Positions 8,207 to 13,015 of a DNA stretch of 64,000 nucleotides are shown one piece after another (position 1 is the first letter of the stretch; every line of letters begins with the position of its first letter). The position numbers and the translations under genes were made by a program. Source of the stretch: Gammaproteobacteria bacterium. Its GTDB lineage: Bacteria; Pseudomonadota; Gammaproteobacteria; Acidiferrobacterales; Sulfurifustaceae. The stretch spans positions 21,869 to 85,868 of the forward strand of contig JAOTWF010000001.1 of NCBI GenBank assembly GCA_029863005.1, in the 5' to 3' direction. The notes under the pieces were generated by a model. That model saw nothing but the letters and a program-made list of their open reading frames with translations. It was not told the origin of the DNA and searched no databases.

Positions 8207-9133
8207 ATGACCGCAATCATTTCCATCTCCCAGCTCAACAAGACCTATGCCTCGGGGCTTGTGGCGCTCCAGGATGTTGACCTCGACATCCGCCGCGGCG
8301 AGATCTTCGCGCTGCTCGGGCCGAACGGCGCGGGCAAGACCACGCTCATCAGCGTGGTCTGCGGCATCAGCACGCCGACCTCGGGCCGCGTCACGGTCGA
8401 CGGCCACGATATCTTAAGCGACTACCGCGCCGCGCGCGCCAAGATTGGACTCGTGCCGCAGGAACTCTATACCGACATGTTCGAGACCCCGTGGGCGACG
8501 ATGAATTTCAGCCGCGGCCTCTTTGGGCTGCCGCCGAACCCGGCCCACCTTGAACAGGTGCTGCGCGATCTGTCGCTGTGGGGGAAGCGCCATGACAAGA
8601 TCATGACGCTCTCGGGCGGCATGAAGCGCCGTGTGCTGATCGCGAAGGCACTGGCACACGAGCCGGGGGTGCTGTTTCTCGACGAACCGACCGCCGGCGT
8701 AGACGTGGAGCTGCGCCGCGACATGTGGTCGCTGGTGCGGCGCCTGCGCGATGGCGGCGTCACGGTCATCCTCACCACGCACTACATCGCCGAGGCCGAG
8801 GAAATGGCCGATCGCATCGGCGTGATCAGCAAGGGCAAACTGATCTTGGTCGAGGCCAAGTCGGTGCTCATGAAAAAACTCGGCAAGAAGCAGCTCACGC
8901 TGCACTTGCAGGAACCACTCGTGGAAATCCCGTCCGGCCTCAGCGACTGGGGCCTGACGCTCAACAACGACGGCAGCGACCTAGAATTCACCTTCGATTC
9001 GAGCAAGGAGCACACCACCATCCCGGTGCTGTTGCGCCGCCTGGGCGAACTGGGAATCGCCTTCAAGGACCTCAACACGCGCCAAAGCTCGCTCGAGGAA
9101 ATTTTCGTCAGCCTGGTCACCGAACGCCGATGA
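8207..9133 (+). CDS. ABC-2 type transporter ATP-binding protein (YadG-like)
   Basis: Walker A GPNGAGKT, signature LSGGMKRR, Walker [13 protein letters not shown]-loop TTHY. Confidence 0.93.
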
Positions 9134-9918
9134 ACACCGCGACACAAACACTTAAATTCAATTACCACGCGATTCTCGCCATTTACAAGTTCGAAATGGC
9201 GCGCTTCAAGCGCACGCTGTGGCAGAGCCTGGTGACGCCGGTGATTACGACCTCGCTTTACTTCGTCGTGTTCGGCGCCGCCATTGGCTCGCGCATGGGC
9301 GAAGTCGACGGCATCCACTACGGCTCCTTCATCGTGCCGGGGCTGATCATGCTGTCGCTCTTTACCGAGAGTGTGAGCAACGCCTCCTTTGGCATCCACA
9401 TGCCACGCTTCACCGGAACCATCTTCGAGATCCTGTCGGCGCCGGTTTCGGCGTTCGAGATCGTCCTCGCCTACGTCGGCGCGGCGGCAACAAAATCCAT
9501 ATTGCTCGGGCTGATCATCCTCGCAACCGCGAATCTGTTCGTGCCGATCCACATCGAGCATCCGTTCTGGATGGCCGGGTTCCTGCTTCTGGTCGCCGTC
9601 ACCTTCAGCCTGTTTGGCTTCATCGTCGGCGTCTGGGCCAAGGGCTTCGAGCAGCTCCAGTTCGTGCCGATGCTGATTCTCACGCCGCTGACCTTCCTCG
9701 GCGGCGTGTTCTATTCGATTGACATGCTGCCGGACGGCTGGCGCACGTTCAGCCTGTTCAACCCGATCGTCTACGTCATCAGCGGTTTCCGCTGGAGTTT
9801 CTACGGCAGCGCCGACGTGGGTGTGGGTATCAGCCTGGCGGCCACGTCGGTTTTCTTCCTGCTCTGCCTCGGGCTGGTGTGGCTGATATTCCGCACGGGC
9901 TACCGGTTGAAGAGCTGA
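9130..9918 (+). CDS. ABC-2 type transporter permease (YadH-like), 262 aa
   Basis: ATGA overlap with the ATPase stop; [27 protein letters not shown] motifs. Confidence 0.9.
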
Positions 9919-9947
9919 GTCGTTTCGCGGAAATTACGGAGGCAAGG

Positions 9948-10574
9948 ATGCGGAAATTCGTTGTCATCATCACCCTGCTCTACGTCGCCGCCGTGGCGGC
10001 GACGCTGGGATATCTGTCGGACTGGTTTCGCGAAGAGCTGGCGCTCGGGGAATCGGTCATCGCGACGACCCTTGCTCTCAGCGCGATTGCCGCCGTGATC
10101 GTCGCCGTCATCGCCTACTGGAAAGACAACGAATGGCTCGCCGTGGTGCTCGTCGCGATTATTCTCGGTTCCGGCTGGTACGTGGGGAAGACGCATCACA
10201 AAGCCTACGGAGAATGGTTCCCGTCGTTCGCACCCAAGGAAGTGGAATCCAGCGGCACCGCTAAGCTCAGCGCCAATGGCCAGGACATTTCCTACCGGCT
10301 GGAGCTGCACAACCCGGGCACCGTCACCCATCGCGAATATTTGGTCGTCACGCGCGGCGGAAAAGACCAGCGTATCCGCCTGCCGGTATTCGAAGAAGCA
10401 CGCAGCGGCTATGTCAGTCCCAAGAGCCCGAATGACTGGATTGTGCTGCATCCTACCGAGAATACCGATGTATTCCGCGCGGAAACTGGCCGGTTTCTGT
10501 TCGTGCGGAGATCCTTCCGGGTTAATCTGAGAACGGGGGAAGCGGCTGCTTTGGCTGTGAAATCGGAATATTAG
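9948..10574 (+). CDS. Hypothetical membrane protein (about 3 N-terminal TM helices plus soluble domain), 208 aa
   Basis: GGAGG RBS before ATG 9948; hydrophobic N-terminal segments; no family recognised. Confidence 0.7.
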   Translation: MRKFVVIITLLYVAAVAATLGYLSDWFREELALGESVIATTLALSAIAAVIVAVIAYWKDNEWLAVVLVAIILGSGWYVGKTHHKAYGEWFPSFAPKEVESSGTAKLSANGQDISYRLELHNPGTVTHREYLVVTRGGKDQRIRLPVFEEARSGYVSPKSPNDWIVLHPTENTDVFRAETGRFLFVRRSFRVNLRTGEAAALAVKSEY

Positions 10575-10576
10575 GG

Positions 10577-10634
10577 GATTAACGATCAAACTGTGTAGCG
10601 GCGAACAGTCGTCCGCACCAGTGATTTGTTATGC
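10577..10634 (-). mobile_element. Integron attC site (59-base-element type), 58 bp
   Basis: Minus strand: R'' GCATAAC, 5-bp spacer AAATC, L'' ACTGGTG, centre, L' CACAGT, 6-bp spacer TTGATC, R' GTTAATC. L''/L' pair with one extra base, as in attC sites. Confidence 0.8.
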
Positions 10635-10676
10635 AAGTTCTCTTTTTCTCCCTTGAGATTATCGGCAGCACCACTT

Positions 10677-11210
10677 TTATTTTACTTCACTTCTTCTATA
10701 GAGCTTGCCGCTCCTCGATTCGAGCATAATGCCAACATCGCCTTTCTCAAATCCAGTAACTGTCCAGCATATGCACGGCTGCTTCGTTAGCTGGCCCATA
10801 ACCATGAGCGTCATGGAAACCTGTTTGTCCTTTATTTTAAGCCCGTGTTTTTTCGCTTCCTTCATCGCGTTATCGCTGTCCATGAAATCGTCGCCTATAG
10901 AATCGGTGATGATGACGGCACTTACCTGGAGCGTTTCAACAGTCTTACTGCCCTGAAAGTCGACTGAGTAGCCTTTCTTCGTCTTGGGCGAATAGAACAT
11001 ATAACCCCACTTACTGGACGTGCCGTCCATGTCTGCCCCGAGGGTGTTGATACTGATCAATACCGCATCTGCCTGCCATTTCTTTGCCGTCTGTTTCGCC
11101 TGCGCGAGCCAGGCCTTTGCTGTGGCACCAGCCGCAAACGCTGCGGTCTGACCGAAACCAAAGGCGAGCGTGGCAACGATAAAGAAGATGGTAAGCTGCT
11201 TCGATCTCAT
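10677..11210 (-). CDS. Secreted hypothetical protein (signal peptide, PepSY-like by eye); gene-cassette cargo
   Basis: 177 aa; signal peptide ending AAFA; AAGGAGG RBS; visibly lower GC than flanks; lies between two attC sites. Confidence 0.78.
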   Translation of the reverse strand: MRSKQLTIFFIVATLAFGFGQTAAFAAGATAKAWLAQAKQTAKKWQADAVLISINTLGADMDGTSSKWGYMFYSPKTKKGYSVDFQGSKTVETLQVSAVIITDSIGDDFMDSDNAMKEAKKHGLKIKDKQVSMTLMVMGQLTKQPCICWTVTGFEKGDVGIMLESRSGKLYRRSEVK

Positions 11211-11264
11211 TGCCGTTCCTCCTTCGAGGATGCTGTTTAGACCTTGTTAAGGGTCGTAATTTGT

Positions 11265-11345
11265 GTATAACGTTTGCCATAACCGGCGAGCAAAAGCGGC
11301 GCGGTGCGCCGCTTTTGCGAATCCGCGTTGATGGCGTTGTTAGGC
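11265..11345 (-). mobile_element. Integron attC site, 81 bp
   Basis: Minus strand: R'' GCCTAAC, 5-bp spacer AACGC, L'' CAT[C]AAC, perfect 13-bp stem GCAAAAGCGGCGC/GCGCCGCTTTTGC (11290-11318), L' GTTATG, 6-bp spacer GCAAAC, R' GTTATAC. Confidence 0.85.
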
Positions 11346-11379
11346 AATTCCAACATTGCTGCCTACTGACAACGGAATA

Positions 11380-11446
11380 CTATAACATCCGCACCCAGTG
11401 GCGATGGCTCGATCGGGTACGCGTAGATTGGGGTAAAACCTTAGTT
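11380..11446 (-). mobile_element. Degenerate attC-like site, 67 bp, overlapping the terC stop codon
   Basis: Minus strand: AACTAAG (R'' with AAC changed to AAG), 5-bp spacer, ACCC[C]AAT, centre, ACTGGGT, 6-bp spacer, GTTATAG. Spacer geometry is canonical but central pairing is weak. Confidence 0.5.
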
Positions 11447-12469
11447 CTGTTTCTTTCCCCCCTCCCCTTCTTTCCCATGCTTGGCCTTGAAGGGGTAGGC
11501 ACTTCCGGTGTAAGCCGGGGCCGGGATGTACAGCGACAGCACCATGGTCGCCGCCAGCACGCATACCGTAGCCACCAGCGACCAGGCCACCGGGACATGG
11601 TAAACGTCGACCAGCAGCATCTTGCTGCCGATCAGAACCAGCACGATGGCGAGACCGTAGCTCAGCAGATGAAACCGCTCGTGCAGGCCGGCGAGAAGAA
11701 AATACATCGCGCGCAGGCCGAGAATGGCGAAGACGTTCGATGTCAGCACGATGAACGGGTCGAGCGTGATCGCGAAAATGGCCGGAATGGAATCCACGGC
11801 GAACACGACATCCACAATGCCGATCAGCAGGATCACCACGAACAGGGGCGTGGCCATCTTCACGCCATTGACGAAGGTGAAGAATTTCTCACCGTCGTAT
11901 TTCGGGGCGATGCGCATGTGCCGTCGGATCCACTTCAGCGCCGGGTTCGACTCCAGGTCAGGCTCTTGGCCTGCGGCCCACCACATCTTGACGCCGGTGA
12001 ACAACAGGAACGCGCCGAACAGGTACAGCACCCAGTGGAAGCGCGCGATCAGCCAGACACCGACCAGGATCATGAGTGCGCGCAACACCAGCGCGCCGAG
12101 AATTCCGATCATCAATACGCGCTTCTGGAATTCCGCCGGTACCGCGAAATACGTGAACACCATGAGAAACACGAAGATGTTGTCCACGGCCAAGGCCTTT
12201 TCGATGAGATAGCCGGTGAAAAATTCGAGCGCCTTGGTGTTTGCCATGGTGCGCTCCGCTTCACTGGCGCTCAGCCCACCCAGGTACCACCACAACCAGC
12301 CCAGGAACATGAAGGACACCGCGACCCAGATCAATGACCAGACGGCGGCCTGCAGCATCGATACCTTGCGGGCGCCTTGGCGATTCAGGGTGAAGAAATC
12401 AACCAGCAGCGCGATGAGAACGAACGCCACGAACAACGTCCACATCATTGGTGTACCGACACCCATCAT
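11441..12469 (-). CDS. terC: TerC/Alx family membrane protein
   Basis: GYLIEKALAVDNIFVF, DVVFAVDSIPAIFA, SNVFAILGLRAMYF motifs. Confidence 0.92.
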   Translation of the reverse strand: MMGVGTPMMWTLFVAFVLIALLVDFFTLNRQGARKVSMLQAAVWSLIWVAVSFMFLGWLWWYLGGLSASEAERTMANTKALEFFTGYLIEKALAVDNIFVFLMVFTYFAVPAEFQKRVLMIGILGALVLRALMILVGVWLIARFHWVLYLFGAFLLFTGVKMWWAAGQEPDLESNPALKWIRRHMRIAPKYDGEKFFTFVNGVKMATPLFVVILLIGIVDVVFAVDSIPAIFAITLDPFIVLTSNVFAILGLRAMYFLLAGLHERFHLLSYGLAIVLVLIGSKMLLVDVYHVPVAWSLVATVCVLAATMVLSLYIPAPAYTGSAYPFKAKHGKEGEGGKKQN

Positions 12470-12484
12470 GACATAGAAGACTGG

Positions 12485-12925
12485 CTAGCGGTGCCGAACT
12501 CTACCCTGCATCTGCTTTTCGGGCGTCAGATCATCTTCCGGGTAAGGGAAGCGGACGTGTCCGTAGCGAATCGCCAACACGGCCAGCGCCAGCACCAGTA
12601 TCGCGCCGGACACCGCGAACAACCGCCACACATCCATCTCCTTCATTTCCAGCACCATGTAGCGCGCCAGTGCCACCATGCCGATGTAAAGCGGGATGCG
12701 CACCGGCAGCTTGCCGGATTCAAAGTACAGTCCAACCATGGTCAGCACTTCCAAGTAGATGAACATCAGCAGCAGATCAGCCAAAGTCACACGGCTGGCG
12801 GCGATCATGACGTTGACCTCCTGCACGCCGGCGATTACCGTCGCCACCGCGATGACCAGCAAGCCGGCATTTTCCACCACACGCAGGGATAAACTGGCAT
12901 AGCGTTTTGGACGGCGCAGCATCAC
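12485..12925 (-). CDS. psiE: Phosphate-starvation-inducible PsiE family membrane protein
   Basis: 146 aa, about 4 TM; DLLLMFIYLEV and LPVRIPLYIG..ALAR motifs. Confidence 0.85.
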   Translation of the reverse strand: MMLRRPKRYASLSLRVVENAGLLVIAVATVIAGVQEVNVMIAASRVTLADLLLMFIYLEVLTMVGLYFESGKLPVRIPLYIGMVALARYMVLEMKEMDVWRLFAVSGAILVLALAVLAIRYGHVRFPYPEDDLTPEKQMQGRVRHR

Positions 12926-13015
12926 GATCCCTCCCCGTAATTCCCGTTCATTCCCAGACTATACCTTGCCGGTCTTGCGAACAATATTCTTGTTCCCGCG
13001 CCGATGCGTGGGCGA

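Follow-up and report, generated by a model that had tools for sequence, protein, structure and literature searches.

A probable two-attC CALIN with one complete gene cassette at the terC locus of a Sulfuricaulis genome

Does the short interval behind terC in this Sulfuricaulis genome hold a gene cassette that an integron integrase once placed there, and does the genome still carry an integrase that could move it? The bottom strand of an attC site folds into an imperfect hairpin whose bulged bases mark the strand, and the integrase recombines this folded single strand; a cassette array can therefore be sought by its hairpins, its strand and its crossover points. The first-pass annotation had read this interval as a hidden cassette array without an integrase. 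We followed up this reading in the window, i.e., the 64,000-nt stretch of DNA under analysis (G000:C127:21869-85868), which belongs to a 2.45-Mb, 134-contig, 95%-complete MAG of the genus Sulfuricaulis (Acidiferrobacterales).

The interval lies between two genes that are widely kept in the genus, with terC present in 9 other Sulfuricaulis genomes (81-93% identity) and hyp208 homologues in 12 other genomes of the genus (59-87% identity). Across positions 10500-11400 the GC content dips to 0.46-0.51, compared with ~0.60 in the flanks, and is ~0.48 in the cassette itself (Table 1), in agreement with the earlier description of the enclosed gene as low-GC. No IS, transposase or recombinase is found within several kb of the locus. 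A gap of 2 nt separates the hyp208 stop codon from attC site 2, which starts 42 nt past the stop codon of the enclosed gene (ORF177) and lies on the same strand as attC site 1.

Table 1 Features of the terC-hyp208 locus (window coordinates) and attC matches elsewhere in the assembly (contig coordinates)
Feature	Position	Strand	Description
ABC ATPase	8207-9133	+	
ABC-2 permease	ends 9918	+	
hyp208	9948-10574	+	208-aa membrane protein without Pfam family; chromosomal flank, convergent
attC site 2	10577-10634	-	58 nt; model R1; putative cognate attC of the ORF177 cassette
Gene cassette proper	10583-11270	-	688 bp; from TT of GTTATAC to G of GTTAATC
ORF177	10677-11210	-	Cassette ORF, 177 aa; signal peptide; GGAGG ribosome-binding site
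attC site 1	11265-11345	-	81 nt; model R1; orphan; bottom strand is the window's + strand
Spacer	11346-11440	-	95 bp, terC stop codon to attC site 1; no recognisable attC
terC	11441-12469	-	Conserved chromosomal flank, in cassette orientation; Pfam TerC 1.8e-51
psiE	12485-12925	-	
attC sites on C47	704-775, 1289-1347, 1883-1968, 2619-2690	-	R1 35-51 bits
Single attC	C26:28018-28104	+	49.8 bits; directly after low-GC 144-aa ORF; typical SALIN
Single attC	C21:41284-41372	+	29.1 bits; low-GC patch
Single attC	C132:18811-18871	-	24.6 bits

A scan of the window against Rfam at gathering thresholds gave no match and reported no attC, and we therefore built an independent attC covariance model, R1. 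As training DNA we used the cassette side of intI genes (TIGR02249) from related genomes of the order, in which this integrase was found above cut-off in 29 of 103 genomes, with 5 of the 21 Sulfuricaulis genomes showing a match. Candidate hairpins of the form NNNNAAC...GTTNNNN were picked with a simple folding filter, and the 36 lying within arrays were kept and aligned (alignment A1), so that R1 was trained on 36 intI-adjacent attC sites of relatives, with the window sequence excluded. The R and L helices covary strongly in A1: 82.6% of cells are paired, compared with 65% after shuffling and 32-37% when the partners are slid, and 18 of 23 pairs carry changes on both sides. An unpaired C (in TTC) and an unpaired A (in GAC) are conserved, whose bottom-strand equivalents are the canonical extrahelical G and T of attC; the AAC and GTT positions do not vary among the 36 training sites or in the window's two sites. 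R1 is home-made and lineage-specific, and its E-values are rough because its calibration was shortened.

Run over both strands of the 64-kb window, R1 returned exactly two matches, both on the minus strand and at the same coordinates (11345-11265 and 10634-10577) where the first-pass annotation had placed two full attC sites. The R''-5 bp-L''...L'-6 bp-R' geometry with an extra L'' base that it had described is present in both, and each 7-mer core of the two sites deviates at no more than one position from RYYYAAC/GTTRRRY. The covariance-model search and the bottom-strand folding that it had proposed as checks came out in its favor, with both sites significant in the window (51.4 and 22.6 bits) and hairpins with bulged bases formed. 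Its third, degenerate site at 11446-11380 had to be dropped, with no R1 match at E<=10 in a 3.5-kb search with filters off and folding z-scores of +0.5 and -0.2. Genome-wide, R1 gave only 9 matches with E<=1 in 2.45 Mb, and the others with E<=0.01 (four on contig C47 and one each on C26 and C21) fall within or next to cassette-like stretches of low GC.

attC site 1 is the stronger of the two (E 8.3e-10 in the 64-kb window), and its orientation is defined by the opposite (+) strand, which scores only 11.2 bits (R1, filters off, positions 9500-13000). Its boxes read GCCTAAC-AACGC-CATCAAC...GTTATG-GCAAAC-GTTATAC, with an extra C in L'', so that R'' is GCCTAAC, R' is G/TTATAC and the predicted crossover falls between G11271 and T11270. 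The center is a perfect 13-bp stem (GCAAAAGCGGCGC/GCGCCGCTTTTGC), and the unpaired bases are a bulged C (G on the bottom strand) and the bulged A of a GGA (T on the bottom strand), at the extrahelical positions conserved in R1; folding z-scores against shuffles are -4.4 and -4.9 for the two strands. Site 1 shares 76% identity with an attC from an intI-adjacent array in the same-genus genome G012 (L047 9391-9477), the two having in common the frame CCATCAAC.CGGA...GCAAAAGCGGCGC...GCCGGTTATGG. A 39-aa ORF annotated across attC site 1 in public gene calls (L075 3855-3974; window ~11237-11356, minus strand) is almost certainly an artefact of gene calling within the hairpin.

attC site 2 is more degenerate, with an E-value of 0.006 in the window, 3e-4 in the 3.5-kb search and 0.23 genome-wide. 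Its boxes read GCATAAC-AAATC-ACTGGTG...CACAGT-TTGATC-GTTAATC, with an extra G in L'', giving GCATAAC as R'', G/TTAATC as R' and a predicted crossover between 10583 and 10582. The hairpin folds moderately better than shuffles (z -2.9) and keeps the GAC bulge, and it meets the extrahelical-base feature only in part because its first bulged base is G instead of the conserved C and because additional bases are unpaired on the L' side. Its first 16 nt (GCATAACAAATCACTG, spanning R''-L'') recur identically after a 56%-identical homologue of ORF177 on the metagenome contig L083. Taken alone, attC site 2 is marginal, and it is the context that settles it as real.

That homologue (P0002, 56% amino acid identity) is the closest one found, and it also points to where the cassette begins and ends. 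The attC in front of it (28.2 bits) differs from site 1 and ends in GTTATGC, and similarity between the window and L083 starts at the core GTTAT(A/G)CACA(A/G)ATT, upstream of which the two attC sites are unrelated; it then spans the ribosome-binding site, the ORF and a post-stop stretch, AAGG.AGAA.AAGAGA.CT.GCATAACAAATCACTG, and ends there. The coding DNA on L083 is only ~65% identical to that of the window, yet the 16-nt R''-L'' is unchanged. The 5' core on L083, GTTATGC, complements the R'' of the cassette (GCATAAC) at every position, and the corresponding core in the window, GTTATAC, agrees at 6 of 7 positions, as the first-pass annotation had predicted from R'' alone; the L083 cassette supplies the exact GTTATGC. 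A shared unit behind different attC sites is the signature of a cassette that has sat in two arrays. From the bounds of the L083 homology we therefore delimit the cassette as in Table 1, with crossovers at 11271/11270 and 10583/10582.

The other ORF177 homologues that were scanned, at 13 loci (L084, L085 and L105-L115), have no attC detected by R1, with L105 showing only a GCCTAAC-like remnant past the stop codon. On L083 itself, the attC at 774-861 keeps R''-L'', but between there and the following ORF, whose beginning resembles a SET-domain protein, no L'-R' with its GTT core is recognisable; this 3' attC is truncated or decayed. The 5' leader of the window's cassette includes ~33 nt that are absent from the L083 copy, and this extra stretch includes a short hairpin, GACCCTTAACAAGGTC, which lies immediately before the ribosome-binding site (window 11240-11255).

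Next, we asked whether an integrase accompanies these sites. The best TIGR02249 scores in the assembly, 78 and 66 bits, fall far below the cut-off of 265, so that by this measure the assembly holds no complete integron, and these two matches are the only PF00589 proteins that it encodes, both Xer-like and located on contigs C53 and C25. A tblastn search with the IntI of the same-genus genome G013 likewise recovered only the two Xer-like genes assembly-wide and nothing in the window at E<=1, so the earlier observation that no tyrosine recombinase lies in the 64 kb stands, and the whole-genome search for intI that it had called for yields only Xer-like recombinases on other contigs. We also considered an intI pseudogene in the window and rejected it, the matches being noise only (E>0.7). 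IntI is thus absent from the window, which extends beyond the locus by 10.5 kb on one side and 52 kb on the other, from the 101-kb contig and from the assembly, an absence that holds for a 95%-complete, 134-contig MAG in which an intI on an unassembled piece is possible.

The missing intI nevertheless looks genuine rather than an assembly gap because of the arrangement on a second contig. In three congeners (G013, G001 and G018), intI is directly beside lexA in the order lexA-intI-cassettes, whereas on contig C47 (4402 bp) lexA is followed after ~125 bp by four cassettes and then by a VIT-family gene, with no intI. DNA homology between C47 and G013 ends at lexA; a GTTAGGC core remains ~100 bp from lexA on C47. 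The sedentary integron of the genus thus appears to have lost its intI in this genome. Beyond these cassettes, the assembly carries single attC sites on three further contigs (Table 1).

How this block came to lie between terC and hyp208 is harder to read, as the content of the interval is different in each relative that keeps both genes. In a comparison of the window with L098, L019 and L099, the interval measures 0.87 kb in the window; 0.83 kb, with another small gene, in G016:C169; 3.7 kb, with a lipocalin, other genes and a partly duplicated 3' end of hyp208, in G017 (L019); and 16.7 kb in G013. No relative's interval has an R1 attC match. Divergence among the genomes starts right at both stop codons, marking a genus-wide variable spot. 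In G017, the last ~93 hyp208 codons together with ~45 bp past the stop are duplicated (L019, i.e., G017:C2, 3469-3747 and 5747-6373), and the duplicates flank a 2-kb low-GC insert encoding a small lipoprotein and a 420-aa membrane protein, as if a different mechanism had inserted an island at this hotspot. A hyp208 fragment of 40 codons is also present in G016:C169, and the MAG of G016, the closest relative, contains two terC copies in different contexts (contigs C91 and C169, 93% and 94.5% identity to the window's terC), which suggests strain mixing in that bin.

The first-pass annotation had recommended comparing this interval with related genomes to look for the same locus without its cassettes. 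None of the 40 relatives searched carries ORF177, and neither the same-genus terC/hyp208 neighborhoods nor the exact-protein TerC/hyp208 contexts of public assemblies yielded an empty site; the latter also showed neither protein in a different setting. Identical copies of ORF177 are encoded on 15 or more public metagenome contigs drawn from 7 or more samples (the locus is carried, for instance, by JGI 3300022209, 3300022218 and 3300022307 and by SRR7134473, SRR7132224 and SRR7133492), with the same neighbors and an identically scoring site 1 in 8 of the 8 places shown, and with attC site 2 in all 7 that reach past ORF177. The arrangement is fixed within the species.

At the junctions themselves, the right end of the block falls at the G/TT core of R', 8 nt past the hyp208 stop codon, and on the left of the putative insertion nothing recognisable (GTT plus cognate core) is found in the 95 bp after terC. 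We tried the attG motif (GWT with CRGM at positions 6-9) on the right junction, which has GTT and CCCC at positions 6-9, and set it aside as uninformative for a different integrase.

The cargo offers few clues of its own. ORF177 begins with a signal peptide (MRSKQLTIFFIVATLAFGFGQTAAFA/AG) and has no Pfam match for the protein itself, while Pfam PepSY (PF03413) matches weakly in 5 of the 14 family members (best E 9.5e-4). A first model, predicted from 5 sequences, was of unusable quality (pLDDT 48), and an AlphaFold2 model from a 14-sequence alignment (A4) reached pLDDT 87.3 and pTM 0.79. The modelled fold consists of two helix-plus-four-strand repeats, for which the best PDB matches are the YpeB C-terminal domain, a tandem PepSY (Foldseek E 2e-3, probability 1.00), and YpmB, with a global TM of only ~0.33. 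On this model, we read ORF177 as a putative secreted, tandem PepSY-like protein. The family is rare: a collection of 5.8 billion proteins gave 5 matches, one of them the window's own protein, metagenome contigs gave 11 loci, and 185,579 species genomes gave none. One distant homologue adjoins a CsgG-family gene.

By the definition of Cury et al. (2016, 10.1101/030866 / PMC4889954), a CALIN is a cluster of two or more same-strand attC sites, spaced less than 4 kb apart, that has no intI in its vicinity. The two sites here are ~630 bp apart on one strand with no IntI nearby, and the locus therefore falls under this definition. We accordingly consider it likely, with a probability of roughly 85%, that the locus is a small CALIN, consisting of the ORF177 cassette with its own attC (site 2) directly downstream of an orphan attC (site 1). 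The earlier reading of an integrase-less array thus holds up on the significance of the model matches, on the bulged bottom-strand hairpins and on the absence of the gene from the 40 relatives.

Two alternatives dispute the sites themselves. It is very improbable that only site 1 is a real attC and site 2 a chance hairpin, which would leave a single, SALIN-like orphan attC beside an unrelated gene: the score of site 2, its genome-wide E-value, its moderate z-score and its deviating first extrahelical position would all allow this, but a correct-strand match within ~200 nt of the ORF177 stop codon has a chance of only ~1e-5 (from the scaled window E-value), and the identical 16-nt R''-L'' in the L083 cassette, with the complementary GTTATGC at that cassette's 5' boundary, argues against coincidence. 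Still less credible is that both hairpins are transcription terminators or REP-type palindromes at convergent gene ends. Site 1 does have a perfect, GC-rich 13-bp stem flanked by A/T runs downstream of terC, and Rfam reports no match, but against this stand a strand-specific match (51.4 vs. 11.2 bits) with conserved RYYYAAC/GTTRRRY cores and bulge positions, the homology of site 1 to intI-adjacent attC sites of the same genus, and the cassette-like, low-GC surroundings of the other genome matches with E<=0.01.

If the locus is a small CALIN, an integron integrase would bind the folded bottom strands, here the + strand of the window, and cut at the G/TT of the R' cores, and attC x attC recombination would release a 688-bp circle that could be re-inserted at attI, at an attC or at a genomic secondary site. 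The cassette would stay frozen unless an integrase were supplied in trans, because the genome has no IntI and its lexA-linked ancestral integron has lost intI. No Pc promoter is available, so ORF177 would have to be expressed by read-through from terC or from an unrecognised promoter. Loot et al. (10.1101/2022.09.11.507474) propose that IntI inserts cassettes at attG sites of the genome and so gives rise to single attC sites and to small CALINs, two-cassette ones included, and the block at terC would most likely have been inserted by IntI before intI was lost, either as a two-attC circle entering a secondary, attG-type GTT site or by a first insertion that made the orphan attC, followed by capture of ORF177 through attC x attC recombination. 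Such a secondary-site origin is plausible. We can offer only tentatively the fuller account, in which the locus would be a record of an attG event: a near-ORF-less attC would have entered a GTT behind terC and captured ORF177 without attI, and a later deletion of intI would have frozen the scattered cassettes (this CALIN and those on C47, C26, C21 and C132). If this is true, cassettes have been frozen as ordinary chromosomal genes.

A competing origin, doubtful but deserving weight, is that the block is a fragment of a lexA-linked or foreign array that was moved to this spot by rearrangement, homologous recombination or island-building at the hotspot. The terC-hyp208 interval is attC-free and different in content in every relative, from which it follows that other mechanisms load this spot, and the 95 bp after terC hold no recognisable left junction while the right junction does not fit the CRGM of IntI1. 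On the other hand, the surrounding several kb are free of IS, transposases and recombinases, the block ends on the right exactly at the R' G/TT, 8 nt past the neighbor's stop codon, and isolated single cassettes on other contigs are the pattern expected of integrase scattering (Loot et al.).

As a class, the small CALIN that we favor is familiar. RefSeq holds 2961 CALINs, 1362 of them with only two cassettes (Loot et al., 10.1101/2022.09.11.507474), and the two-attC CALIN is the commonest CALIN class. The locus adds a verified minimal CALIN in an environmental sulfur oxidiser to a class that is common and already described, and it opens no new question, although the rare, uncharacterised ORF177 family may be of minor interest. 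Its support is unusually clean: an attC family shared with integrase-bearing congeners, a diverged cassette behind a different attC, and an emptied integrase locus. It is also in line with the idea that integrase-mediated scattering gives rise to small CALINs and single attC sites, which then persist as reservoirs after integrase loss.

Set against the CALINs of Cury et al., the locus agrees in having two same-strand attC sites, no intI or intI pseudogene, no resistance gene and no neighboring IS, and it shows no categorical difference, being of minimum size with one complete cassette; its sites were scored with a lineage-specific model and not with that of IntegronFinder, which would probably report the locus. 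With the SALINs and attG insertions of Loot et al. it shares an isolated intergenic cassette that ends at G/TT, in a genome with more single attC sites; it differs from a SALIN in having two attC sites instead of one, and from the attG insertions in that its right junction, TTAATCCCC, does not carry the CRGM motif of E. coli IntI1 hotspots. Finally, in comparison with the sedentary integron of Sulfuricaulis (G013, G001 and G018), the cassette sits at terC without intI, attI or a Pc promoter, but its attC sites belong to the same family, and like the cassettes of that integron it is short, low in GC and of unknown function.
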